DNA from: Bacilli bacterium
Lineage (GTDB): Bacteria; Bacillota_I; Bacilli_A; RFN20; CAG-826
Assembly (NCBI GenBank): GCA_024408565.1
Contig: JAKSUW010000002.1
Coordinates: 31,993-95,992 of the forward strand
Direction: 5' to 3'
Length of the DNA: 64,000 nucleotides
In this document: one piece after another, positions 1-59,050 of the stretch
How positions within the stretch are numbered: position 1 is the first letter of the stretch
Layout: each line of letters begins with the position of its first letter
Program-made: the position numbers and the translations under genes
The notes under the pieces: generated by a model
The model's database searches: none
The model's input: only the letters and a program-made list of their open reading frames with translations
What the model was told of the DNA's origin: nothing

Positions 1-699
1 GATAATGACATCCATTTTGCCTGACGGGCATTCTTTTGCATCTAAGCCTTCAATTGCTTCTTGCGCGGTATTACGCGCAATTTGATTAATATCTAAGGTT
101 TTAAAATAATCCATGTTACCCGTAGTGCCTGGAATAGCAAAGGCGCTTTCGTGTTGGTCGCCACGGCTAGCTTCCGCGCGGAACACTAAACGAGTATGTT
201 CGCGGGAGTCTTTGACATGTAAACCATCACTATTATAAATTTCGATTTTTTTCTGATCACCGACAAAGGATACAAGAGCGCGTGTTACTAATGGTGAAAC
301 TTCTTTCATCGCTTGAGTTGCTTGTTTTAAAACGGCAATTTTTTCTTGAATTGGTGTTTTAAAATAAGCGCCATCGTTGGGATTAATGTTTTTTACTCGT
401 TGATTGATAAAATCACGGCATTCCACGACTTTTTGTCCATGAAAACCATTCGCTAATTTTTGGGCGAGCGCGATTAAGCGGCCCCCTTTTAAATCATTGG
501 TGTAACCATAAACACTATGATCACCTTTTAGTAAACGAATACCAACGCCGGAAGAAGATACATTCGCAACGCCTTCAAGCACGCCATTATCAAGATTAAT
601 TGCGTTTTTCTTTTCTTCTTCGTAATAAAGTTCAGCAAAATCGGCGCCTGAAACGAGGCCCGCTTCTAAGACTTGTTTAGCGAGTTTTTTACTAATCAT
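1..699 (-). CDS. TldD/PmbA family (peptidase U62) protein, N-terminal part; gene runs off the window start
   Basis: Minus-strand frame open to position 1. N-terminus MISKKLAKQVLEAGLVSGADFAELYYEEEKKNAINLDNGVLEGV... resembles the TldD N-terminus (E. coli ...DYGDLYFQ...). ATG at 699..697, overlapping the stop of the upstream gene. Confidence 0.55.
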   Translation of the reverse strand, partial: MISKKLAKQVLEAGLVSGADFAELYYEEEKKNAINLDNGVLEGVANVSSSGVGIRLLKGDHSVYGYTNDLKGGRLIALAQKLANGFHGQKVVECRDFINQRVKNINPNDGAYFKTPIQEKIAVLKQATQAMKEVSPLVTRALVSFVGDQKKIEIYNSDGLHVKDSREHTRLVFRAEASRGDQHESAFAIPGTTGNMDYFKTLDINQIARNTAQEAIEGLDAKECPSGKMDVII

Positions 700-1885
700 T
701 GGTGTAATTGTCGAAATATCCTTGGACTAAAATAATCGGCGTACCCTTATCGCCTGAACCACTAGTGAGATCACACAATGAACCTAATAAATCGGTGAGA
801 AGACGCGGAGTAGTGCCTTGTGTCGCCATCGTGCCTTTTAAATCTTTGGCTTTATTTTTAATTGATTGAGAAATAGCCGCTTTTAATTCTTCGCCTTTTA
901 AATCTTTGAAGTCATTGTCGGCAAGATATTTAAGTTTTAATTCGTTTGGCGTACCGATTAAACCATCAGTGTGGAAAGGCGAAACAACCGGATCGGCTAA
1001 TTCCCAAATTTTTCCTTGGGGATCTTTGAAAGCGCCGTCACCATAAACCATCACTTCAACGTGTTTACCGGTTTTTTTAAGGATGTCATTTTGAATTTTC
1101 TCCACTAATCCTTGTGCGTCACGGGGGAATAATTTAACAGTAGTTTCAGTAGCTTTATTAGTGCCTAAAAGACCATAATCTTTGTTATAGCCACTCCCGT
1201 TAATAGAACTAGTTAATATGTCATCAAGTCCTAAAACAATCTGTGCACCCGCAGCTTTTAATAAGCGCTTAGTTCTTGCACGAGTGTGAATATCGCAAGT
1301 TAAAATTTTCTTTGTGTAATTAAGAATTGCTTTTGGCTGATTAGCGAAAATTACTTCAGCGGTCGCGCCTTCACCTTCAATTAATTTAATGTAGTATTCG
1401 ATATAATCCACGCCAGTAAATTCGTGTTTACGGAAACCAAATAATTGCCGATACCGTTCAAGTGTTAAGACATCGGAATAAGGATTAATGCCTTTCGCAT
1501 CTAAGTCATCATAGGTTAATAAGGAATTACCAACTTCATCACTTGGATAAGAAAGCATTAGAATAATTTTCTTAGCACCACGCGCAATACCTTTTAAAAG
1601 TACGCTGAAGCGGTTCCGTGAATAAATCGGAAAGATAACACCGATGGTGTCGCCACCAAGTTTGTTTTTAATATCTTGACCAATAGCATCGATACTAGCG
1701 TAGTTACCTTGAGCCCGTGCCACGACAGATTCAGTAACCGCGATGACATCTTTATCACGTAAAGAGAAATGATCAGTTTGGCCCGCGGTCAAAACACTAT
1801 CGACAACAATTTGGGCTAGGTTATCGCCCTCTTTGATAATAGGGCAACGAATTCCTCTTGAGATTGTTCCAACGTTTCGAGCCAT
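692..1885 (-). CDS. CofE-like protein (F420-0:gamma-glutamyl ligase superfamily, long ~400-aa Firmicute type); function unknown
   Basis: 397 aa. GIRCPIIKEGDNLAQIV...DKDVIAVTESVVARAQG matches the CofE N-terminal signature (P-LIKEGDDLAELI...GDVLVV.S.VISKAEGR). AAGGAG RBS 8 nt upstream of the ATG at 1885. Confidence 0.4.
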   Translation of the reverse strand: MARNVGTISRGIRCPIIKEGDNLAQIVVDSVLTAGQTDHFSLRDKDVIAVTESVVARAQGNYASIDAIGQDIKNKLGGDTIGVIFPIYSRNRFSVLLKGIARGAKKIILMLSYPSDEVGNSLLTYDDLDAKGINPYSDVLTLERYRQLFGFRKHEFTGVDYIEYYIKLIEGEGATAEVIFANQPKAILNYTKKILTCDIHTRARTKRLLKAAGAQIVLGLDDILTSSINGSGYNKDYGLLGTNKATETTVKLFPRDAQGLVEKIQNDILKKTGKHVEVMVYGDGAFKDPQGKIWELADPVVSPFHTDGLIGTPNELKLKYLADNDFKDLKGEELKAAISQSIKNKAKDLKGTMATQGTTPRLLTDLLGSLCDLTSGSGDKGTPIILVQGYFDNYTND

Positions 1886-2286: not shown

Positions 2287-4326
2287 ATGTATCGATTAGT
2301 TAATGTTAGCAAACAATATAGTAAGCAAAACGTCTTACACCATGTGACCCTTACTTTTCCTACGCACGGTTTAGTAGCGATTGTGGGTAAATCAGGGTCG
2401 GGGAAGTCGACTTTATTAAATTTACTTTCAGGAATCGACCATCCCACAACTGGTACAGTGATGTATGGTGGCGATGATTTAAACAAATTTAATGCGGCAG
2501 AACTAAAAACCTATCAAAATGAAAAACTTGGTATTTTATTTCAACACTTTAATCTCTTTAATGATTTAACAAGTATGCAAAATGTGGTGATACCAGCACT
2601 TATTAAAGGCGAGAAGAAAGCAAAAGCGTATGAATCCGCTGCTAAATTATTTAAGCAATATCATTTGGAGAATTTAAAAGAACAAAAATATGGAACATTA
2701 TCAGGTGGAGAAAAACAACGAGTGGCGTTATTACGCGCTTTGATTAATCATCCAGAAGTGATATTAGCTGATGAACCAACCGGTGCACTGGATAGTAAGA
2801 ATAGCATCTTAGTGATGGATGAACTTAAGAAACTAGCGAAAGATTATTTAGTCATTGTCGTTTCCCATAATGATGCATTAATTCGTCAATATGAGGATTA
2901 CCGTATTAATATCGTAAACGGGAACGTGAGTCCTCTATCAGCGGTACCGACACAAAAGAAAATTGTTAAACATCAACGGCATAGCAATCATCTTTTAATG
3001 CAAACATTTTTAAAATTGCATTTAAGTAAGCATCGTGTTCGTAACTTAATTAGTTTAGCTGCGATTAGTTTCTCCACACTAAGTTTTTTATTATCAGTGG
3101 GTTATATTAACGGCTCAAACGCTTCACGAGCAAAGTATGAGCAAGAATCACTCCTATATAACTCGGCCACCATCGCTAAGAAAACCATTATTGAATTGCC
3201 AAATTCGCCAATTAAAATTTCTAAATTATCTCGACCAAACGACGAGGAATTAACGTTTTTGACGGATGAACTAGCAAGTGTAGAAGTGGTGAATAATTAC
3301 CAAACCGTTTTTCCAAACGCACCAGTTTTTATCTTTGATCAACAGGAAATTAATGATATCGATTTTGCTCCTGTTTATGATTTCCATATTTATCAAGATT
3401 TATTAATCACTGGGAAAATGCCATCACCAAATTTTCAAGAAATTATTGTTAATACCGAATTTATCAATCGTTTCGGATACCAAAAAGAAAATATTATTGG
3501 TCGTAATTTGCGGCTATCAAGTATTGTGACGATTAATAGCAAAGTTGGTAGTGATTATATAAAAGATATCATTTCTTATTCGGATGAATTAACGATTACC
3601 GGTGTAGTGGAAGAGTTTGCCTATCTTAATATGCCGCGCGTTTATTATTCATATTTGGGTTTACAGCATAAATTGAAAAACACTTTACTTGTTAATTACT
3701 CGCATGCGCTTGGCTATAACGCGACAATAGATGAATTAGTGAGCAACGCGACAAGTGATGATCCTAACAGTGGCTATGCCTATTACTTATTTATAAAAGA
3801 TATCAAAGAAATGAATCGCTTATACCAATTAAAAGTAGAGCACGATCGATTAAACGACTTTGATATTGCCTCAACTACTTATTTAATCGCGGGGTCTTAT
3901 GAAGATATGACTAATATCATCGCCACCTCACTAGTGGTTTTTCTAATTTTGACGCTGTTAGCGACACTTACAATTATCATTATTGCTTCTTATTCTAACT
4001 ACACGCAAAACAAGCAAGAAAGCGCGATTTTATCGGTTTTAGGAGCCAAGCGAAATGATATATTTAGCATTTTTAATGCAGAAAATTTATTAGTTGCAAT
4101 TGTCGGTTTACTCCTTGCGTTTATTTTGGCGTTCCCAATGCAATTATTAGCCAACCAAATTATCGCGAACGCTTTCCATCTAACAAATTTAATTGTGGTG
4201 CCGTTTATTAGCTATTTGTCACCACTAATCATATTGTCGGTTTTGCTACTTACTTCGTTAGCGGCTTTTATTCCTTTTATGTTTTATGAGAAAAATTATA
4301 TTTTGGAGGAATTAAAAGACGAATGA
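2287..4326 (+). CDS. MacB-type fused ABC transporter: N-terminal ATP-binding domain + FtsX-like permease with a ~270-aa extracytoplasmic domain
   Basis: Walker A GKSGSGKST, signature [15 protein letters not shown], Walker B ILADEPT. One TM after the ATPase, a large hydrophilic domain, then three C-terminal TM helices (MacB/FtsX topology). I place the start at M of MYRLVNVSKQY (in frame with track ORF 2185); the upstream 34 codons are Pro-rich translation of the GC hairpins. Confidence 0.8.
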   Translation: MYRLVNVSKQYSKQNVLHHVTLTFPTHGLVAIVGKSGSGKSTLLNLLSGIDHPTTGTVMYGGDDLNKFNAAELKTYQNEKLGILFQHFNLFNDLTSMQNVVIPALIKGEKKAKAYESAAKLFKQYHLENLKEQKYGTLSGGEKQRVALLRALINHPEVILADEPTGALDSKNSILVMDELKKLAKDYLVIVVSHNDALIRQYEDYRINIVNGNVSPLSAVPTQKKIVKHQRHSNHLLMQTFLKLHLSKHRVRNLISLAAISFSTLSFLLSVGYINGSNASRAKYEQESLLYNSATIAKKTIIELPNSPIKISKLSRPNDEELTFLTDELASVEVVNNYQTVFPNAPVFIFDQQEINDIDFAPVYDFHIYQDLLITGKMPSPNFQEIIVNTEFINRFGYQKENIIGRNLRLSSIVTINSKVGSDYIKDIISYSDELTITGVVEEFAYLNMPRVYYSYLGLQHKLKNTLLVNYSHALGYNATIDELVSNATSDDPNSGYAYYLFIKDIKEMNRLYQLKVEHDRLNDFDIASTTYLIAGSYEDMTNIIATSLVVFLILTLLATLTIIIIASYSNYTQNKQESAILSVLGAKRNDIFSIFNAENLLVAIVGLLLAFILAFPMQLLANQIIANAFHLTNLIVVPFISYLSPLIILSVLLLTSLAAFIPFMFYEKNYILEELKDE

Positions 4327-7070
4327 TATCACTTAATAAGATTTCCAAACGTTATAAAAATCCGGTGGTAAATAATTTTTCTTATACCTTTAAAAACCGT
4401 GGATTAATCGTGGTTTTAGGGAGCAGCGGTTCAGGAAAGAGCACACTTTTAAACCTTATCAGTGGAGTTGATTTAGATTACCAAGGAGAGATCCAACTAG
4501 ATGGCACTAATTTACGACTTTTAAATCTAACCGAACAAAGTAGTTTTCGTCTTAACCAAACCGGTTATGTTTTCCAAGATTTTAAATTACTAAATTTACT
4601 CAGTGTGAAGGATAATGTTTTGTTTAATTTAGACGCAATTGCTTCCGTAAGTAAAAGCATGAAAGAAGAGATGCTTGACCGGGCACTTAATTATGTTGGT
4701 TTAATGCCCAAAAAGAATGTAGCGGTGAAGTCATTAAGTGGGGGAGAAAAACAACGGGTGGCAATCGCTCGTGCAATTGTGACTGAACCGAAATATTTAT
4801 TGTGCGATGAACCAACCGGAAATCTCGATGATAAGACGGCTATTCAGATTTTTGAATTATTAAAAAAATATAGCGAGACTCATCTAGTCATAGTAGTGTC
4901 ACATGACCAAGAAAAATCATATAGTTATGCGGACGAAATCATTCATTTACAAGATGGGGAAATTCAAACAGTTGAAAAACTACATCCGATTGATGAAAGA
5001 AAGTTACCGAACGCCAAAATTGAAAAGAAAAAATGGCCGAGATTATCACTTAATTTATTGTTGCGAGCTGGCGTTAGAAAAATGAAAGAGAAAAAATGGC
5101 GTTCAGCCTTTGTTAATCTCTTGTCTTCTAGTTCGCTACTCGCATTAGGGGTCGGAGTGATGATTGCCACTACTCTACGCAACCAAATTATTGAATCTTT
5201 CAATAACGTTGTGGAGGAAAATGAGATTCTTGTTAGTAAACGGAACGCTGACCCTAATCCTTATTCTTATTACATCTCTACACCGGAAGATGAAGTGCGT
5301 ACTTTATATGAAGAATACGGTGATTATTGTTATGACATGGGTGTTATGTATCTTAATAATTTCAATACATTTTTTACAACTTATGACCGTGTGAATCTTC
5401 GTTATATGGAAGATTTTAAAGTGCCACTTCCCTCTTTTCATAGCGCGCTATTTGTGAATTATGTTTGGCCGGAAGAAAAAATAATTAATCGTTTTTATCC
5501 AGATTTTTCCGGTAAGTTAAGTATCGATGAAGTCATTATTGGTATTACGTATAGTCAAATGGTTACGCTTTGTCAATCACTCCAAATTCAAAGGTCTTTC
5601 GAAGCCCTAGGAGCATATCTTGAAGCGAAGGAAATTATGTTGTCACTAGAAGTTGCTAATGCCGATTGGGAATATGAAGACAAACAAGTTATGCGCTTAA
5701 AGGCAGTTTATAACTCAAGTGTTCCTGAGGTATACCATACAAACCATTATTTTAATCAGAACCTATTTGAAGAGAAGATGCGATTCCCAATTACTTTAGA
5801 TATCAATGCGACTGATTTAGCACCATTTACTTTAAAGAAAGTATTTACCCTCCACACGATTGAAGCACCAACTAATTTAATTGAAGAAGTCACTTATGAA
5901 GCACGTTTTAACGATATTTTATTAGAACGGAGTGAAAACTTTTTAAAAGATACATGTGTAACAACCGATAGCTGTTTACGAAATGTTTTACTAGTATTCA
6001 CCTTAGACAAAAATACAGTTAATGTTTCTGACATCATTTACTTTAAGCGGGTGGCGAACGCAATCAAAGCTTATTACCCATCAACTTATGGTGGTTATCA
6101 AATGCATAGCAGTGGGTTACTAGCGGGTTTTGTCAGTAACATTGGTTTTTCTTTTGATGAAGAGAAAATTGTCGCGGTCGGTGATTATTTCGCTAAACAA
6201 ACAGAGGGAGAAATGGAAGATTTTCCAGGAGTCGCTATCGGCAGTATGACTCGTTTTAATAATCATGGCGTATTGTTTTCGAGTGACTTATCAAATATTG
6301 AACAAGGTGAAGCGCCAACTAGCTATGACGAAATTGTTTTGTCTACGGGATTAATCGATTATTTAGGCATAAAGACTAATCCGATTGGTGAAAAACTTTA
6401 TTATTGTATGTATTCTTCAACTCTTGATGCTGTCATCATTCATGAATTTGTGGTGACGGGTATCGTCAATAATCCACAAAATTATCTTTACCATTTTCCC
6501 TTATTCACTATTTCCTTTTTCCGTGATCGCTTAGGTGTTTCTTCTTTTAATTTATTACCAACTTCGTTAGTTTTAACTTTTGATGAAGGCGTAAACATGG
6601 ATTTGTTGGTTAGCGATTTATCCGCCGCTTTTAAAGATTATCAATTTACCTCGCCACTTGTTGAAATTGGCAAAACGGTTGATGAAGTAATGAGCTATGT
6701 CAAAACGATTGCCTTTATTTTTATTGGTGTAACACTAGTCGTTACAATTATGCTTTTATCACTCATTGCTTATTTAAATACATTAGAAAATAAAAAAGAT
6801 GTCGGTTTACTAAAACATCTTGGTCATCCACGGGAAACCATTATGCAATATATGCTCTCTCATACTTTAGTGATGTCGTTAATCGCTACTGGATTAGCAG
6901 TACTAGAAATGCTCGTCTTACAAATCTTTATGTCGGGTGCGATGGCTAGTCTTTTCGGTGGTGGGACCATTTTAAACATTTCACCATTACCGTTCCTTAT
7001 TATTGTGGTGGTCGGCCTATCATTGCCGTTATTAATTACCGGAATTATTACGCGTTTGTCGCTTCATTAA
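4323..7070 (+). CDS. Second MacB-type fused ABC ATPase/FtsX-like permease (915 aa) with a ~500-aa extracytoplasmic domain
   Basis: Walker [33 protein letters not shown] ~residue 260, long hydrophilic domain, three C-terminal TM helices. ATGA overlap with the previous gene, so probably a heterodimeric partner. Confidence 0.8.
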
Positions 7071-37500: not shown

Positions 37501-38080
37501 TTGGGGTGAAGAGACGAACCATATTTATACCGAGAATTCCGCTTGCCAAGTTTATATTCGCGCTTTAACTGGTCCGACTGATTTCACTCCTTATATTTAT
37601 CCGGCGAGTCGGAGTGATACCACGATGGGACAACAATTAGCGTATCCAGTCGCCTTTGAATCAGGGTTAACCTGTTTTGCAAGCTCAATTGAAGAATTCG
37701 ATGGCCTTGATGATAATCTCAAAGATTACTATTATGCTTATCCTACAGTTTGGGCGAACACTCATTATTTAAGCGGCAATGTAAACGAAGGTTTAACCGT
37801 CGCAAGAGAGAGCCGCGATGGTCGCTATTATGTTGGCGGCTTTAATAGCTACGCGAAAAACGAAATAATTAAACTTGATTTCTTAGACCCGAATAAAACC
37901 TATGAGGCTAAGATTTACACCGATGGGGCGAACACTCGCTCGGTCCACTATAACACTGTAAAAGTGCGCTATGGAGAAGGGATTAGCATTCATATGAACC
38001 ATAATGGTGGATTTGCTATTAAACTAACACCTGTCCATAACGACAGCATCCAAAACGCCCAATTAGCGTTCCTTAACTAA
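34559..38080 (+). CDS. Large surface lipoprotein: N-terminal NPCBM-like carbohydrate-binding module + clan GH-D (GH27/GH36/GH97-like) alpha-glycosidase TIM barrel
   Basis: Lipobox LVLSSCGHN. YVYLSDLQPSKVVSG... fits the NPCBM start motif. TIM-barrel strand motifs VTSWSWMSG, GWKYYILDEGW (GH27 IDDCW-like) and GFVGVKADFFDS (KxD nucleophile region). 1173 aa. Confidence 0.55.
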   Translation: MKKYFTLLGALTVAGVLVLSSCGHNPRQPATPVIEDEKEPEFADYVYLSDLQPSKVVSGSDKHNFLGVDAGLTATGGTHQLALLTDKENNIATVYQKGIILHAGKDAQVVYNITNMGATRLTGIFGINANVSDTSSAAKLKIVVDNETLYESPRALTPLDLAINVAVTIPVDAKELTIMMIDDGNHADSHAIFATPRLYANYYDLDAYEINKDTVTDYRGVHRNSTPSAQLKLETVYKANFNNDNYYPISRRFQHGFGLHTFDKDEAGTEDKGTSSYTINLPNTGTANRRFTAFFGNSSDQSTDSNPTLKFEVTENEASSFSTTKNLKDPAINIKKGSFIDIALKPNTTSLTFKTTGVDEKGKSGSSCHPVLVMPRVYVPDFDLSKPYQFDLNAASPYLKPGESLNYQALYKDYKGNVHDISNDDDLKIYLTEEAKPSFIVSGKDVIALDIGGQEQGKGELNFEYQGVSQIVGILTNDDGLERTSLVSPDGSNTITVELVDGAPYYSITHGQEAIVRASPLGFKAVVNKTDAETFDFTEGLSLQSKTTAQHIHETYSMVSGKYSEYINDYNTQDVTFKNAKGKSITIELRAYNDGCAFRYSFGDGVTAFTFNNGEATEMHLDPNSLLYFQQSRNFHKYSGSHEEIYYVERNPAPYPDWDGTYVDSGTKPQESGQMNVPAGIQINGMLMPFLFKTVNNTSVVMSEAGLDGSYAGSMVNRIYSTDNCSAYKINVPPQDYYHYMNTEPGYQRAHYNFTSPWRAFVIGTEKTMVETTMIENLAPAQDMTTDFSWVKPGVTSWSWMSGVNTSPDAQEYQGREDVIRNQIDLAARMGWKYYILDEGWPNRVTTEEAIQRGYVSEYADHFPGKFPIPGPEGFRDYTPEVMAYAKSKGIGLIAWIHVGQFNDPTNNYEQMEKLISSLKDVGFVGVKADFFDSESQFTIDLENRLYECLLKHKMIANLHGANKPTGERRHYQNVINREGVWGEETNHIYTENSACQVYIRALTGPTDFTPYIYPASRSDTTMGQQLAYPVAFESGLTCFASSIEEFDGLDDNLKDYYYAYPTVWANTHYLSGNVNEGLTVARESRDGRYYVGGFNSYAKNEIIKLDFLDPNKTYEAKIYTDGANTRSVHYNTVKVRYGEGISIHMNHNGGFAIKLTPVHNDSIQNAQLAFLN

Positions 38081-38082
38081 AT

Positions 38083-38155
38083 TTTATATTTATGAATAAA
38101 TATAGATAAATATTCGCGTCTTTTTGGCCTCCTTTACGTATATATAAATAGGAGG
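38083..38155 (+). repeat. Copy 2 of the ~75-nt intergenic repeat
   Basis: TTTATATTTATGAATAAATATAGATAAATATTCGCGTC + TTTTTGGCCTCCTTTACGTATATATAAATAGGAGG. The 3' half aligns with the reverse complement of copy 3. CCTCCT/AGGAGG can pair as a hairpin. Confidence 0.6.
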
Positions 38156-47126: not shown

Positions 47127-48266
47127 TTACTTAGGCGCGGGTGTATATCTTAATGTCCGCATACTACACCACATAACTCTGACACCTAAGATTAAGACAA
47201 ACATCATCATTGCTAATGGTTTTAATAAGAAACCAAATAAAGCAATAAGACCGGCTGTTAAGGAACAATAATAAGAAATCTTTTGGCAATCCCAGAAACT
47301 ATAAATCCGGAATGGGTTATTCTTACCACGGGTTAATAAGAAGACCATTAAGCCCATAAAGAGTAAGACACCAACGTTCACACCAATCATAATGCCAGTA
47401 GAACGCCAAGCGCCATTCCAACGCGTAACATTATAGACTTGATCCCAGAACGGAATCCACTTATCAGCAACTTTTGCAGGGTCAAGTGTTGCTAAAGCAT
47501 CATAAATTCCTAAAGTTTCAAAAAGATCACCATTTGGAGTGCTTAAATAGTCGCCACCAACGGAACCCATAATGGAACTATTGCCACGTTGGAAGATATA
47601 ACCATAGATGTTCTTCTTACCAAAGAAGATACAAGAAGTACTACGAGCTAATTTAACTGGATCGCCAAAGTCTTCAGTAGTCTCTTTTCTTGTTTGTTTA
47701 TACTGGAGCCATTTTTTTTCTGGGTGTTCTTCATCCTCACTAGCCCACGGATTAGTGTTATTTAACAAGGCGGTGACATGATCATTAAAGGTTTTATCAT
47801 CCTTGTCTTCAGTTAAGTCGTAAACTTCTAAACACCTAATTGAGTCATATTCTGTGTCTTCTCCATTAGTATAATGGTAATATTTTACGTTAGTATAGTT
47901 CCAAGTTACTTGAGTTTTCTCGTCTTCACTCAGCGTAACATCTTTTTCGCCATCTACAAATACGTTTTTACCCTGAGAAATAGTTAGTGTTTTGTCGGAA
48001 TTAATAGTTATTTTGGCTCCGCCGTTTTCGGCAGTGTAACAAAAATTATATAATCCAGGTTTAAAGTTGTAAGTAATTTCGGAACTGACCCAAGCGCTAC
48101 CACGTTGTTGAAGATTAGTCACTGTCATCGGTAAAACCGAGAAAAAGAGAGCAACTAAGGCAAAGACAACCGCGATGATATTGTATTTCTTCTCACGGGT
48201 TCTCGCGGCCTCAACGCAAGCGTTGTTTGATACTAATGATCTTAAAAGAAGCTTTAAATGTTTCAT
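47127..48266 (-). CDS. Hypothetical membrane protein (N-terminal TM, ~250-aa extracytoplasmic domain, 2-3 C-terminal TM)
   Basis: 379 aa. No recognisable family. Confidence 0.45.
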   Translation of the reverse strand: MKHLKLLLRSLVSNNACVEAARTREKKYNIIAVVFALVALFFSVLPMTVTNLQQRGSAWVSSEITYNFKPGLYNFCYTAENGGAKITINSDKTLTISQGKNVFVDGEKDVTLSEDEKTQVTWNYTNVKYYHYTNGEDTEYDSIRCLEVYDLTEDKDDKTFNDHVTALLNNTNPWASEDEEHPEKKWLQYKQTRKETTEDFGDPVKLARSTSCIFFGKKNIYGYIFQRGNSSIMGSVGGDYLSTPNGDLFETLGIYDALATLDPAKVADKWIPFWDQVYNVTRWNGAWRSTGIMIGVNVGVLLFMGLMVFLLTRGKNNPFRIYSFWDCQKISYYCSLTAGLIALFGFLLKPLAMMMFVLILGVRVMWCSMRTLRYTPAPK

Positions 48267-48643: not shown

Positions 48644-48666
48644 GCGGCAAAGGCCGCTTTTCTTTT
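48644..48666 (+). terminator. Rho-independent terminator after rpmE
   Basis: GCGGC-aaag-GCCGC followed by TTTTCTTTT. Confidence 0.75.
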
Positions 48667-50287: not shown

Positions 50288-51139
50288 ATGAAAATTGCTC
50301 TTTCGGCGGAAACAACCATTGACTTAACTCCCGCCTTACTTCAAGAATACGATATCCATATCGTCCCCTTCTCAGTTATTTTAGGTGATCAAGCTAAACT
50401 CGACGGAGAGATGAGTAACCAAGACATCTTTGATTATGTGGCTAAAAATAATAAGCTCCCCAAGACGAGTGCGGTTAATCAATTTCAATACGAAGAACAT
50501 TTTAAAAAACTCTTAGAGAATTATGATGCGGTGATTCATTTATCTTTATCAAGTGAGATATCAAGCGCGTATCGTAACGCTTTACTAGCGGCGGAAGAGT
50601 TTAATGGTAAAGTTCATATCATTGATTCTCGTTCTCTTTCGACGGGAATCGCTCTCTTAGCCTTTTACGCGCACGACCTAATTACGCAGGGCTTAGACGA
50701 TAACGTAGTAGTGGAGAAAGTGAAAGCCCGGATCCCATCAATTCAAATTAGTTTTGTCATCAAACAATTAGATTATCTTTATAAAGGTGGTCGCTGTTCA
50801 AAACTCGCGATGTTTGGTGCGAATATCTTCCATATTTGCCCCCAGATTATTATGAGTGATGGCAAGATGGCACCAGGTAAAAAATACCGGGGGCTTTATC
50901 AAAAAGTTGTGGCGGATTATATTGACGACACCTTAGCCCAATTTAATCATCCAGATTTAGAACGCGCCTCGATTACTTACTCTAGTCTCGATGATGAAAA
51001 GGAGATTGTCGAGATGGTGAAAGCGAAGTTAACTGCGCGTGGCTTTAAGCGTATTTATCAAACCTACGCGGGTGGTACAATTACCTGCCATTGTGGGCCC
51101 AACACCATTGGAATTGCCTATTTTAACGATCATGAATAA
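50288..51139 (+). CDS. degV: DegV-family fatty-acid-binding protein
   Basis: MKIALSAETTIDLTPALLQEYDIHIVPFSVIL, 283 aa. Confidence 0.85.
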   Translation: MKIALSAETTIDLTPALLQEYDIHIVPFSVILGDQAKLDGEMSNQDIFDYVAKNNKLPKTSAVNQFQYEEHFKKLLENYDAVIHLSLSSEISSAYRNALLAAEEFNGKVHIIDSRSLSTGIALLAFYAHDLITQGLDDNVVVEKVKARIPSIQISFVIKQLDYLYKGGRCSKLAMFGANIFHICPQIIMSDGKMAPGKKYRGLYQKVVADYIDDTLAQFNHPDLERASITYSSLDDEKEIVEMVKAKLTARGFKRIYQTYAGGTITCHCGPNTIGIAYFNDHE

Positions 51140-53294
51140 TTTACCGGCGGTTAATCTTTGCTTATACCAAGAACGTGTCAAACGTGGTCAATCTTTAAAG
51201 GTGGCAGCGCACGGGATTGGGATTAACAAGATTCGCTTAAATTTAATCGAAAAAGGTTATTTAGCAGTTAGTAAAAAACTTGAACCGAAGTTTATTAAAT
51301 ACTACGGTTTAGCACCAGATTTCTTTACTAAGCACTCTAACTATGTTGAACCGCTTAAAGATAAACAAACAAAACCAACTAAGCCTAGTAAAATGAATAA
51401 AGTCTTAACCCATAAGGCTACTAAATGGGTCTTAGGTGGTTTAATGGTGGTAACCGCGGTAACACTTGGTGTTGGTATTTATTTAAACTATGAACCTTAT
51501 ATTCATCCGCGAGCACCGTGGACTGAAAACTTTACGACTTTCCATGAGAAATTCATGAACGATGAAGACACCTATGAAGATAGTGGCGATCTCGTTTTGT
51601 TCGACCATCGGTATGTAAATGTATATGAAAAAGAGAAATATAGTGAGGGACATACTTTAGAGGTTACGGCCGCTCTTTATGGGAACGATAATAATTCATC
51701 CAATACTAATTTTAGGTTTGATTACTATATCCCAGATGAAGGAATTAATGATTCCTTGGCTAACGCGGTGTTCCAAGTCCTTTGTTACAATAACCACATC
51801 ATCGCGTTTACGGATTATGTTACAGATGAAATTAGTGTTTCTGCCGCGACATGTTTTATCGAAAACGATGAATATAATCTCCGCCCATTCTTTTATACCG
51901 ATGTGAATGGCGAATTAAAAAAAGCGCTCCCCGGGTCTTTAATTCATCAAGAAGTCAGCGATTTTATTAAAAGTAACCTTCCCGGTATGTTTGCTGTTTA
52001 TAGCAGAAATGTATTAGCAAAAAAAGGCTGGGCGTACACAAATATCAATGATCTACTACGCGACATCCAAAAGATTTCAAAGGCGTATGTTAAAAATGTC
52101 GGCTTGGCTTTTGATATGACCTTATATAGCGCGCTTATTTTAGCGTTATCGGCTTGTATGCTTGGTTTATCTTTAATGACGGTTCGACGTAGTAAGAAGG
52201 CGACAGTCGCAATCAATAAGAGTAATGATAAAATTTCTGCCGCAGCTATCGCGTTACCATCGCGTAGTCTCCCTAACGATACACGGGTGCCATTAGTGGT
52301 ACCAGAGTTTGCTTTGCGTATTATTGGGATTGCGATTTTAGCATTATTCGCGGTGAGTTTAAACTTAGCAATTTTTTGGCGACTAAACGTTGATTTCATT
52401 AGTGTGCCAGAGCGAGTTGATCGTCTACAAAACCTATCGAGTAATATTCTTATTGCGGCAATTACTCTCTTCTTCTTTTTAAAACTTGATATCTATCATA
52501 AAAAGAGCCAAAAAGAATTAGCGAGTGATGTCTTTATTCTCTTTATGGGTGGCTTAGCGTTCTATATAGTTGAAGTTGTTCTTTATACGACTGCGGTGCG
52601 CGAATTTTCTTATTCCGCGAATATCTTTAATTCGCTTTTTGTGATTATTACTACCTTCTTACCTGGCAATATCCTTTGGAACTTGATGTTCTACTCGTTG
52701 ATTTTCTATTTCTTATTTTCAACACCAGAAAAGTATAAGAATCAACCCGCGAAAATATTACGCTTCCGGTTATTGAGCCTTCTTCCAACGCTCTTCTTAC
52801 TGTTTGCACTAATTTACAAAATCGTTATTGAGCCGGTTGCACCAGCACCGTATTTTATTTCCGTTATTTTCTTTACTAAAGGCGTACTCATGACTTTATT
52901 CGCGATTGTTTATTTATATGGTATATATTTCTTACAACTTCATTATCGGCATAAATATGGTGATAGTAACGCTAGTTTAATATTTGAATCTCGTCGCTAC
53001 GCTTTTGCTAAAAATATTATGGCTTCATCAATCATCGTGGTTTTATTCTTAATTGATTTACTCTTCCGGTTTATAATGCCCGATAACGTTTTAATGTTAG
53101 GTAATAACTGGGCAATCATTTTATTAGTACCGTTTATTATGTTCTATCACCCACATTTAGGTAAACGTAGTAACAAATTAGACACTTTATTCTTGGCTTT
53201 ATACGCTCTCTTTTTCGCAGGTGCTTATCTTGGAGCGATTAACCAAATTCTCTCGCTTTTCGATTTTACTGAATTAGTGGAGATTTTGCATTAG
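51132..53294 (+). CDS. Membrane protein, paralog A: N-terminal XRE-type HTH, 1 TM, ~250-aa extracytoplasmic domain, C-terminal ~9-TM domain; unknown family
   Basis: HTH_XRE-like LYQERVKRGQSLKVAAHGIGINKIRLNLIEKGYL. TM at ~125-147, hydrophilic domain, then many TM helices with motifs LPGNILWNL and PHLGKRS. Start at the internal MNNLP of the track ORF (8-nt overlap with degV). Confidence 0.6.
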   Translation: MNNLPAVNLCLYQERVKRGQSLKVAAHGIGINKIRLNLIEKGYLAVSKKLEPKFIKYYGLAPDFFTKHSNYVEPLKDKQTKPTKPSKMNKVLTHKATKWVLGGLMVVTAVTLGVGIYLNYEPYIHPRAPWTENFTTFHEKFMNDEDTYEDSGDLVLFDHRYVNVYEKEKYSEGHTLEVTAALYGNDNNSSNTNFRFDYYIPDEGINDSLANAVFQVLCYNNHIIAFTDYVTDEISVSAATCFIENDEYNLRPFFYTDVNGELKKALPGSLIHQEVSDFIKSNLPGMFAVYSRNVLAKKGWAYTNINDLLRDIQKISKAYVKNVGLAFDMTLYSALILALSACMLGLSLMTVRRSKKATVAINKSNDKISAAAIALPSRSLPNDTRVPLVVPEFALRIIGIAILALFAVSLNLAIFWRLNVDFISVPERVDRLQNLSSNILIAAITLFFFLKLDIYHKKSQKELASDVFILFMGGLAFYIVEVVLYTTAVREFSYSANIFNSLFVIITTFLPGNILWNLMFYSLIFYFLFSTPEKYKNQPAKILRFRLLSLLPTLFLLFALIYKIVIEPVAPAPYFISVIFFTKGVLMTLFAIVYLYGIYFLQLHYRHKYGDSNASLIFESRRYAFAKNIMASSIIVVLFLIDLLFRFIMPDNVLMLGNNWAIILLVPFIMFYHPHLGKRSNKLDTLFLALYALFFAGAYLGAINQILSLFDFTELVEILH

Positions 53295-53316
53295 AATATT
53301 TACGCAGTAAATAACT

Positions 53317-55554
53317 ATGGCTAACACGAAAAAGTCTTACGCAATCAATCGGTTATTATACCGGGCACGACTCGACCGCCACGAAACTTTAAAACGGGCG
53401 GCTCATTCAATGCACATACACCGCCTCCGTTTAAAGTTAATCGAAAACGGTTATTTAGATGTGCCAAAAAAATTACAACAACGCTTTATTGATCACTATC
53501 ATCTTCCGAAAAACTTCTTTACGGTAAACTCGACTTATTCTGAACCAATCAAAGAAGATCTTGAGAAGAAAAAAGATATTATTCGGATTCGTAAACTCGC
53601 TAACTCACGGCGGCTTCGAGTAGTTTGCGGAATTGCCATTGGCGCTAGTGTCGTTACTTTAGCCCTCGGTATTTTTTATGCGAACCGAAACGCTCGTGCT
53701 CCTCGCGAAGCCTGGAGCAAGGATTTTATTACTTTCCGTGAAGCGATAATGAAAGAGGGTACTCAAGGCTATAGTGAATCGTTTAATGATAATTATTATT
53801 ACATTCCTAAGGAAGGGTACACGTTTACATTAGATGTACCAGACTATCGTACGATACAACTAGATGGCGAGATTCAAACTATTCTTTACGAGAAAGAAGT
53901 TAATGCCGCTGATACAAATATTTATTGTAAGTTTACTACGCCAGAATCATCGAACGAAATTGAACACGACCCATCTTTTACGATTACTATGGAAGTGACT
54001 TGCTATAACAAAAAGAAAATTGTGTTCATCTCCTACATTGAAGAGAATATGACTGGTGCGATTACTGTTCCTTCCGCTAACTGCATAATTGAGGATAGAG
54101 GTAAATTTAATTTAAGACCATTTCGCTACAACAGAGCCACTCGTTCAGATAATATTGCCCAAGTTGGCGACAAACATTATGAAAAATTAAGAATATGTAT
54201 GGAGCAACTCCTACCGCAATTTATTGAGAAATATAATAATGATTATTTACCTAGTTTCCATTATTTACAGTATAAAGATTTTTATGATGTGATTGATGAT
54301 GTTGGCGTGATTTCGCGTAATTACATTTTGAATTTACGATTAGGCTTTCATATGACTTTATCGAGTGCTTTGGTTTTTGCTTTTGTTAATGCTCTTATGT
54401 TCCTCTCCTTTGCAGTTCCAGCGAACAAAAAGGTAGAGATTTCCGAAAACGTCAATATGGCTTCAGGAAATAGTAAAGAGGGTATTAATTTCTCGGCCTC
54501 TAGTCTTGCCTTGCCTGGGCGTAGCCACGTGAACGACATTAAAGTTCCGCTTATTTTCCCAGAATTCCTTTTGCGGTTTTTAGGTTTATCCATTATCTTA
54601 CTATTCGCGGTGGCCCTTAACCTATCCGTTTATTGGCAGCTTAACATCAGTATGATTGTTCCCAACGCTACCATCACCGCAATCAGTAATTTATCAAGCA
54701 ATATGCTTATCGCGGGAACCACGCTTCTCTTCTTCTTGCGTCTCGATGTATTCTCCCGAAAGAATCGGGTCGATTTATTGACTAATATTTTCTGGTACTT
54801 TATCTATGGTCTTGGTTTCTACGTAATCGAGGTTGTACTCTACTCTACCTTTATGCGCGAATTTGCTAATACACAAAATATGTTGACTAAACTCGGCTAT
54901 TTTATTGCCACATACCTACCGGGTAATATCTTCTGGAACTTAACGATTTACTTCGTCATCTTCTATTTCTTGTTTATTACGCCAGCGCGTTTCCAAAATA
55001 AACCTCATTCATCCTTAGTTAAGTTTAGATGTTGTAGTTTAATCCCAACCGCGGTGTTGATATTCTCTTTTATCTTTACCTATGTTATTTCACCAATGAC
55101 AAATGCCCCGTATATTTTGACTTGCGCCTTCTCGACTGGTAGTCTTGCTATTTCTTTATTCGCCTTACTTTACATGTATACAACTTATTTCTTTCAAGTT
55201 TATTGCATTCGTCGTTATGGGAAAGATGTCGCCACGATTTACTTTTATTCAAAACGCTTTTCGTTTACCAAGAATGTGTATGCATCAATTATTATTACTT
55301 TGATTGTCATCGCAGACTTATGTTTCCACTTCTTAATGCCTAATAATGTTCTAGGTTTAGGTAACAGCTGGATGATTATGGTTTTAGTGCCACTTATCTT
55401 ATTCTATTTCCCCCATATTGGCTCACGGAGCGCTCGTTGGGATAATGTTTGTGAACAACTTTATAGTCTTTTCTACTTAGGCGCGTATCTAGGTGCGGCC
55501 ATCCAAGTTTTAACCTTATTTGATATGAGCGCGTTACTCGAACTCATCCATTAG
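53317..55554 (+). CDS. Membrane protein, paralog B (tandem duplicate of 51132..53294), same architecture
   Basis: LYRARLDRHETLKRAAHSMHIHRLRLKLIENGYL (HTH_XRE-like), ...YLPGNIFWNL..., ...PHIGSRS. Alignable with paralog A over its whole length. 745 aa. Confidence 0.6.
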   Translation: MANTKKSYAINRLLYRARLDRHETLKRAAHSMHIHRLRLKLIENGYLDVPKKLQQRFIDHYHLPKNFFTVNSTYSEPIKEDLEKKKDIIRIRKLANSRRLRVVCGIAIGASVVTLALGIFYANRNARAPREAWSKDFITFREAIMKEGTQGYSESFNDNYYYIPKEGYTFTLDVPDYRTIQLDGEIQTILYEKEVNAADTNIYCKFTTPESSNEIEHDPSFTITMEVTCYNKKKIVFISYIEENMTGAITVPSANCIIEDRGKFNLRPFRYNRATRSDNIAQVGDKHYEKLRICMEQLLPQFIEKYNNDYLPSFHYLQYKDFYDVIDDVGVISRNYILNLRLGFHMTLSSALVFAFVNALMFLSFAVPANKKVEISENVNMASGNSKEGINFSASSLALPGRSHVNDIKVPLIFPEFLLRFLGLSIILLFAVALNLSVYWQLNISMIVPNATITAISNLSSNMLIAGTTLLFFLRLDVFSRKNRVDLLTNIFWYFIYGLGFYVIEVVLYSTFMREFANTQNMLTKLGYFIATYLPGNIFWNLTIYFVIFYFLFITPARFQNKPHSSLVKFRCCSLIPTAVLIFSFIFTYVISPMTNAPYILTCAFSTGSLAISLFALLYMYTTYFFQVYCIRRYGKDVATIYFYSKRFSFTKNVYASIIITLIVIADLCFHFLMPNNVLGLGNSWMIMVLVPLILFYFPHIGSRSARWDNVCEQLYSLFYLGAYLGAAIQVLTLFDMSALLELIH

Positions 55555-55592
55555 CATAAATAAATTTTATTTATGATATAATCAAACTACTT

Positions 55593-58974: not shown

Positions 58975-59050
58975 CTCCTACCTTTATATACGTAGGAAGA
59001 GCATCTAAAGACGCGAATTTATTAATATATTTATAAATAAATATAGAAAA
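58975..59050 (-). repeat. Copy 3 of the ~75-nt intergenic repeat (inverted orientation)
   Basis: The reverse complement reads TTTTCTATATTTATTTATAAATATATTAATAAATTCGCGTCTTTAGATGCTCTTCCTACGTATATAAAGGTAGGAGG, collinear with copy 2. The forward strand also contains the exact 22-mer TATATTTATAAATAAATATAGA of copy 1. Confidence 0.6.

Follow-up and report, generated by a model that had tools for sequence, protein, structure and literature searches.

Two adjacent genes, ORF1 and ORF2 (open reading frames 1 and 2), were analysed in a 64,000-nucleotide stretch of contig JAKSUW010000002.1 from the metagenome-assembled genome of a Bacilli bacterium; this whole stretch is called the window. Judged from their sequences, they encode full-length tandem paralogues of an undescribed family of integral membrane proteins, which is known up to now only from metagenomes and whose members have approximately 700 amino acids (aa). 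Each protein joins a cytoplasmic helix-turn-helix (HTH) of the XRE/Cro-C1 type to a variable extracytoplasmic domain and a conserved 9-helix polytopic domain. We tentatively favour the idea that the family acts as a membrane-integrated one-component transcription regulator, whose signal would probably be related to lipids or fatty acids.

Architecture and family of ORF1 and ORF2

Both genes lie on the plus strand at the positions proposed in an initial annotation of the window (Table 1), and their products align end to end with 38% identity (E 4e-175). All motifs listed in that annotation were recovered, namely LPGNILWNL / LPGNIFWNL, IVEVVLYTTAVREF / VIEVVLYSTFMREF, PHLGKRS / PHIGSRS and both HTH strings. 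An upstream GTG at 51039 would allow a longer ORF1. The ATG at 51132 was preferred because it overlaps the degV stop codon (51137-51139) and because it fits the N-termini of the homologues, in which the HTH begins 5-10 residues from the N-terminus.

Hydropathy and two AlphaFold models agree on the order of the parts: the cytoplasmic HTH, a first transmembrane helix (TM1), the variable beta-rich extracytoplasmic domain, TM2, a disordered basic loop and the 9-helix domain, with 11 predicted TM helices in total. The ORF2 model was built at full length with 128 homologues and reached a predicted local distance difference test (pLDDT) value of 90.8 and a predicted template modelling score (pTM) of 0.87; the ORF1 model covers residues 93-720 (29 homologues, pLDDT 84.3). 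Basic residues strongly prevail in the first 100 aa (20-25 K/R vs 6-10 D/E), and only a short tether of approximately 25-30 aa connects the HTH to TM1. The extracytoplasmic domain is acidic and composed of beta strands and helices. The initial annotation had described this layout as an HTH, one TM, an extracytoplasmic domain and a domain of about nine TM helices, which stands except for the size of the extracytoplasmic domain, now ~195-205 aa (~205-230 aa by hydropathy) instead of ~240 aa. The cytoplasmic loop after TM2 has ~45 aa and is variable in sequence. In the models, one helix of the polytopic domain is interrupted at the conserved P-G-N537 motif.

Table 1. Coordinates of the features described in the text. 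Positions refer to the window, except for the last row, in which they refer to the respective locus.
Feature	Position	Residues	Strand	Remarks
degV	50288..51139		+	DegV/FakB-type fatty-acid-binding protein; stop codon 51137-51139
ORF1	51132..53294		+	720 aa from ATG; MCQ2793940.1, annotated 'hypothetical protein'; family HMM E 3e-184
ORF1 HTH, XRE/Cro-C1 type, cytoplasmic	51153..51329	~8-66	+	full-length HTH_3 match, E 0.13
ORF1 TM1	51414..51503	~95-124	+	hydropathy, AlphaFold model
ORF1 variable beta-rich extracytoplasmic domain	51504..52043	~125-304	+	acidic loop, model; without structural match
ORF1 conserved 9-helix polytopic domain	52305..53294	~392-720	+	hydropathy, model
ORF1 polytopic motifs				PEF, LPGNILWNL, TPEK, FRLLSLLP, KYG, KN, FYHPHLGKRSnklD
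ORF2	53317..55554		+	745 aa; MCQ2793941.1, annotated 'hypothetical protein'; more diverged tandem copy
ORF2 HTH, XRE/Cro-C1 type	53344..53526	10-70	+	five helices
ORF2 TM1	53608..53697	98-127	+	hydropathy, AlphaFold model
ORF2 variable beta-rich extracytoplasmic domain	53698..54279	128-321	+	hydropathy, model
ORF2 TM2 and loop	54280..54525		+	long helix 322-366, disordered loop 367-403, pLDDT <50 at 379-386
ORF2 conserved polytopic domain	54526..55554	404-745	+	nine helices; hydropathy, AlphaFold model, conservation
ORF2 family-conserved residues, polytopic domain				P415, E416, D477, Y502, E505, P535-G-N537, L552, P556, R571, P577, Y634-G635, K652-N653, P692, Y697, P699-H700, G702, R704, D709
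Palindrome cores	1969-1988, 38085-38104, 59026-59045			elements including 1964-2004 and 38080-38120
Lipase-like lipoprotein genes, examples	L004 8203-9969, L005 6117-7931, L019 4155-5957, L020 2603-4393, L021 6660-8537, L022 6564-8543		L004 and L005 (-)	11 more loci

By profile comparison, the N-terminal domain is an HTH of the XRE/Cro-C1 type, as the initial annotation had suggested. Taken alone, the two N-termini from the window score below the Pfam cut-offs (12.7 and 14.5 bits), with HTH_3 as the match for ORF1 (E 0.13) and HTH_25 for ORF2 (E 0.031). The family profile matches solved XRE regulators in the PDB, 9sf2 with E 4.3e-10 and ImmR with E 1.8e-8. Among 65 relatives compared with Pfam, HTH_3 was found in 33 (best E 2.8e-11), HTH_19 in 12, HTH_25 in seven and HTH_31 in six. 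The modelled domain has the five helices of a lambda-repressor-like fold. Positions N11, R18, E43, G45 and Y46 are conserved in at least 90% of the family, and R18, E43 and G45 are canonical XRE positions. Y46, which is part of an ExGY motif, and Y74-P75 behind the HTH are strongly conserved, and neither occurs at the matching positions of the aligned XRE regulators.

The remainder of the protein is without a described relative. Full-length ORF1 and ORF2 gave only noise in Pfam and NCBIfam at E<=1. In the 65 relatives, Pfam matched nothing C-terminal to the HTH except for one weak and unrelated hit in a single member (Nucleo_P87, E 0.0065), and sequence-profile searches of the PDB returned only noise outside the HTH. 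Foldseek found no match at E<=1e-3 among 350,000 PDB chains, with template modelling (TM) scores of 0.23 or lower for the membrane part, and the extracytoplasmic domain had no structural match among solved structures. The initial annotation had called the membrane domain transporter-like and had considered a 'transceptor', but no transporter fold was matched either by profile or among the solved structures. When its two halves were aligned with hhalign, the probability stayed below 1%, which gives no sign of an internal duplication. The anti-phage defence models of PADLOC were not matched at E<=0.01. These comparisons agree with the earlier description of the polytopic domain as belonging to no recognised family: it has no relative among described families and solved structures, and to call it a new fold in an absolute sense would go beyond this. 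Membership in the SEDS (FtsW/RodA), CPBP/Abi or MFS families was ruled out, as neither a profile match nor a fold match to a solved member was obtained for them or for other known polytopic families.

A HMMER search of 1.84 billion cluster representatives (50% identity clusters) showed that the family comprises at least 227 proteins at a cut-off of E<=1e-3, of which 153 reach E<=1e-10. Nearly all have 640-760 aa and can be aligned over the whole length. Of the best 150 among the 227 matches, approximately 126 are full-length proteins of 630-760 aa; the shorter ones that we read resemble fragments or truncated gene calls. No stand-alone membrane domain and no alternative fusion were seen among the HMMER matches, and therefore the HTH behaves as if obligately linked to the polytopic domain. 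A word-indexed homology search, with ORF2 or with a 128-sequence alignment as query, recovered only a 96% identical copy and is unsuited to this hydrophobic family. Conservation is highest in the polytopic domain, high in the HTH and very low in the extracytoplasmic domain. The conserved positions of the membrane domain are largely polar. Most of them belong to motifs that are predicted to face the cytoplasm (PFxPE416, D477, TPK, R571, KYG635, GNRYxxxKN653 and LIPxxLFYHPHxGxRNxxxD709), and Y502/E505 and PGN537 are predicted to lie within the bilayer.

Every member that was traced comes from a metagenome or a metagenome-assembled genome (MAG). The hosts named in the genome collection comprise 'Bacilli bacterium' MAGs (of which three are isolates from horse faeces), 'Bacillales bacterium UBA1719', Candidatus Onthovivens, one Acholeplasmatales MAG and four MAGs labelled Lachnospiraceae. 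The latter four (L021, L022, L024 and L025) are GC-rich (~60%) and carry a full-length family member together with a lipase gene, whereas the other named hosts are low-GC Bacilli. Their occurrence could reflect horizontal transfer or a distribution wider than the names imply. In one locus (L054, 3886-6014), the family member is broken into three consecutive ORFs, which correspond to positions 4-87, 88-504 and 505-683 of the family hidden Markov model (HMM); it is a frameshifted pseudogene or the product of assembly errors.

Tandem duplication and gene neighbourhoods

The tandem pair is a lineage-specific duplication with two probably functional copies, because five related loci of matching gene order (L002, L008, L013, L014 and L015) have only a single copy, because of the grouping in a neighbour-joining tree and because all nearly invariant family residues are retained in both ORF1 and ORF2. 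In this tree ORF1 groups with the single-copy genes of related MAGs, P0014 and P0015 among them, and ORF2, in the same clade, stands on a long branch. An ORF2 copy of 96% identity is located on a contig of a different sample (L001), where it follows the 3' end of a further family gene. The two paralogues share 45% identity in the HTH, 23% in the extracytoplasmic domain and 47% in the polytopic domain, so that the extracytoplasmic domain is the most diverged part, as had been noted before. With its HTH and membrane domain kept and its extracytoplasmic domain and recognition helix diverged, ORF2 might serve a second input or target specificity, and the extracytoplasmic domains may have diversified in their ligands.

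For the neighbourhoods, approximately 32 distinct loci were surveyed, which were collected from the encoding contigs, a genome scan and a metagenome pattern scan. The metagenome scan used a hand-made DNA pattern for FYHPHxGxRN and the genome scan a closer alignment. HMMs were made for the family, for its recurrent neighbour and for DegV. Two arrangements recurred in different parts of the family tree. In the sister clade, 17 distinct loci carry the family gene directly beside a gene for a homologous lipoprotein of ~600 aa, which has a lipobox and matches Pfam Lipase_3 with up to 24.6 bits (cut-off 22), as for class-3 lipases. An invariant GYSRxG nucleophile elbow and an invariant Asp and His are present, followed by a large C-terminal extension without Pfam matches. 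These 17 loci form one clade of the tree and range from 25 to 60% GC, and the lipase gene is found in every member of the clade with enough flanking sequence. The orientation varies: eight loci are divergent, the lipase gene lies upstream in four and downstream in five. That the adjacency survives rearrangement argues for a functional link.

The second arrangement is the one of the window. Six loci, including the window, share the order metG-degV-X-comEB-ecfA1-ecfA2-ecfT, where X is the family gene, and in all six the start of X overlaps or abuts the degV stop. The degV and comEB-ecfAAT surroundings pointed out in the initial annotation are thus conserved within the close clade. The remaining loci (approximately nine), which belong to the window's half of the tree, had no recurrent partner.

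Further features were seen around these genes. Directly 3' of rpmE, at 48644-48657 of the window, there is a GC-rich hairpin with a T-run. Probably, the metG-degV-X1-X2 transcript starts anew in the 47 nt before metG or relies on read-through. An AT-only inverted repeat of 13 nt, TAGCATAAATAAA / TTTATTTATGATA (55552-55578), overlaps the ORF2 stop in the 38-nt spacer before comEB and is too AT-rich for the terminator scan to count. Divergent from rpmE, on the minus strand at 47127-48266, lies a gene for a membrane protein of 379 aa with an N-terminal TM and C-terminal TMs but without a Pfam or PADLOC match; its position is kept in three related MAGs (L002, L008 and L014), and it is 43% identical to the L002 copy. 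On a 2.08-Mb contig of 'Bacilli bacterium UW_DM_BACIL1_1' (L023), the product of the gene just upstream of the family member (3913-4842) is another membrane HTH protein (309 aa) with an XRE-like HTH, one TM and a Ser-rich extracytoplasmic region. Two unrelated loci carry IS200/IS605 elements no more than a few kb upstream of the family gene, with TnpA and a TnpB/Cas12f-like protein in L004 (5103-6687) and TnpB in L016 (4525-5697).

The window also contains three intergenic copies of TATATTTAT-R-AATAAATATA, a near-perfect palindrome of 19 bp located within AT-rich elements of 25-41 nt. Six strand-matches were counted vs 0.14 expected, and none of 100 shuffles reached this count. One copy lies directly upstream of truA, and in appearance the element resembles either an operator or a small repeat. 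The initial annotation had considered AT-rich quasi-palindromes of this kind as possible binding sites of the two proteins. The palindrome was rejected as a target of ORF1 and ORF2: in spite of its three significant copies, none was found in the upstream region of the pair, and it is missing from 59 of 60 related loci.

Proposed function and alternative explanations

In this family, the predicted DNA-binding domain is part of the same polypeptide as one or more TM helices, the combination by which transmembrane transcription regulators are recognized (PMC10269533). Under the reading that we tentatively favour, of a membrane-integrated one-component regulator, the polytopic domain together with the extracytoplasmic domain would form an input module seated in the membrane. 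This module may alter the state of the short-tethered HTH, which would be the output and bind operator DNA at the membrane. The divergent arrangement with a lipase gene in eight loci of the sister clade would indirectly support such a control of transcription. The input would probably be related to lipids or fatty acids, considering the surface lipase-like lipoprotein encoded beside the sister-clade genes and the translational coupling to degV in the window's clade. Exogenous fatty acids are bound by DegV/FakB proteins, so that FakA can phosphorylate them (PMC10146087, PMC10848957), and therefore the degV and lipase associations point to lipid scavenging. For the genes of the window itself, the lipase link is an extension from the sister clade. 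A more far-reaching version is unlikely: that the 9-helix domain is a new fold for sensing or handling free fatty acids or membrane lipids, which is hard-wired to an XRE HTH and controls the scavenging of lipids (surface lipase, FakB/DegV) in gut Bacilli that have reduced genomes and depend on exogenous lipids.

Several observations weigh against a regulatory role with a lipid signal. The window pair lies inside the housekeeping operon metG-degV-X1-X2-comEB-ecfAAT without a promoter region of its own, and the scan of the window revealed no strong terminator between degV and comEB, around the pair. This position would be unusual for an autoregulated XRE regulator. The adjacency to degV is seen in six related genomes only and could be inherited synteny, and according to the family tree and the neighbour HMMs the window's own clade lacks the lipase link. 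Within the HTH, the residues of the recognition helix, apart from hydrophobic ones, are not among the positions conserved in the family. The divergent spacers between family and lipase genes (0-126 nt) contain no shared operator, only generic AT-rich palindromes, and the same was found upstream of stand-alone family members. Membrane sidedness follows from the positive-inside rule and the secondary structure, not from coordinates. Finally, the best-conserved parts of the membrane domain, namely polar and charged motifs predicted for the cytoplasmic side and the PGN break in the middle of the membrane, resemble an enzyme or a transporter at least as much as a sensor.

The last point leads to the main alternative, a rather doubtful one, in which the polytopic domain is itself a lipid or fatty acid transporter, a flippase or a membrane enzyme. 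It would operate between the lipase on the surface and DegV/FakB in the cytoplasm, and the HTH would be an accessory for feedback control (a 'trigger' transporter or enzyme) or an anchor for a partner. Conserved polar or charged residues in the membrane or at its edge (E416, D477, Y502/E505, PGN537, R571, KN653 and HPHxGxRNxxxD709), the broken helix at the PGN motif and a membrane domain that is better conserved than the HTH would fit such an activity, as would the strict adjacency, which involves the gene for a secreted lipase-like lipoprotein in one clade and degV in the other. An autonomous transporter, however, would not be expected to occur exclusively with an HTH. Moreover, the domain is without the internal repeat common in transporters, no conserved energy-coupling partner adjoins the genes, and no transporter or enzyme fold among the solved structures is similar to it.

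It is improbable that the HTH is a protein-interaction module as in RodZ, in which it binds MreB, and that the protein is a membrane scaffold or a morphogenetic factor. The HTH-TM-extracytoplasmic part has the layout of RodZ, weak matches to the RodZ-type HTH_25 occur in ORF2 and in 7/65 relatives, the genes stand among housekeeping genes without a regulator-like promoter context, and the conserved Y46 and Y74-P75 could mark a protein interface. Yet HTH_3 matches outnumber those of HTH_25 by 33 to 7, and the family profile matches the RodZ-MreB chain 2wus_R with an E of only 0.26 vs 4e-10 for true repressors. A DUF4115-type extracytoplasmic domain was not detected among the members scanned, RodZ has one TM compared with eleven here, and for some relatives of these bacteria an absence of peptidoglycan is predicted (PMC10868615). 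No mreB gene was seen among the scanned ORFs of the window. Regulated proteolysis is just as improbable; here the polytopic and extracytoplasmic domains would hold the HTH inactive until a cleavage near TM1 releases it. The short tether between HTH and TM1 would suit this mechanism, which is reviewed in general terms for bacterial membrane-bound regulators (PMC7593790), but no conserved protease gene is located nearby and no cleavage-site mark is present in the sequence.

Comparison with known systems

Membrane-embedded HTH regulators are a known and widespread class (PMC10269533). The general kind, a transmembrane XRE-type regulator, is thus familiar, whereas this family, its extracytoplasmic and polytopic domains and its associations with lipase and DegV are undescribed. 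Such regulators are common, few are characterized, and their input domains are mostly unknown. The present family has an invariant architecture, a very confident AlphaFold model and, in uncultured Bacilli of the gut that are related to Acholeplasmatales, a clean association of its genes with those for lipid scavenging. At minimum, it merits a Pfam/DUF entry.

Like ToxR and CadC, the family combines a membrane-anchored DNA-binding domain with an extracytoplasmic domain, and would likewise act at the membrane (PMC10269533, PMC5430869). The DNA-binding domain of ToxR and CadC is, however, a winged helix of the OmpR type, and these proteins have a single TM and no polytopic domain. With RodZ, a morphogenetic protein that binds MreB and consists of HTH_25, a single TM and DUF4115, the family shares the beginning of the protein, in which a short basic linker joins a cytoplasmic Cro/C1-like HTH to one TM and then to an extracytoplasmic domain, as well as the weak HTH_25 matches. 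Its HTH is nearer to DNA-binding XRE repressors, a DUF4115 match is missing, and a large polytopic domain follows the extracytoplasmic one. The distinction from RodZ drawn in the initial annotation is supported in that HTH_25 is not the best HTH family, DUF4115 was not detected and ten further TM helices follow the extracytoplasmic domain.

BcrR of Enterococcus faecalis is a one-component membrane-bound sensor of bacitracin (PMC3968067). In both BcrR and the present family, an N-terminal cytoplasmic XRE-type HTH is fused to a polytopic membrane part, and neither has a kinase or receiver domain. BcrR is a protein of ~200 aa with four TM helices and no extracytoplasmic domain, whereas the family described here has 11 TM helices, a beta-rich extracytoplasmic domain of ~195 aa and a 9-helix domain of ~330 aa with motifs of its own. 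Outside the HTH, no sequence relation was detected. On the regulator reading, BcrR is the closest worked example in terms of logic, with sensor and output in a single protein.

To our knowledge, neither the sensing of exogenous fatty acids at the Gram-positive membrane nor their passage across it is a settled matter. Provided that the lipid link is real, the family would offer a concrete handle on how the uptake of host or dietary lipids is regulated in gut bacteria with reduced genomes. Eukaryotic SREBP has a DNA-binding domain tethered to a membrane part, acts after proteolytic release and uses separate sensor proteins. The likeness, a membrane-tethered DNA-binding domain and a putative link to lipid supply, is an analogy only and does not imply homology. 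Should the 9-helix domain indeed sense lipids, the family would correspond in function, within prokaryotes, to membrane-bound transcription factors that sense lipids.

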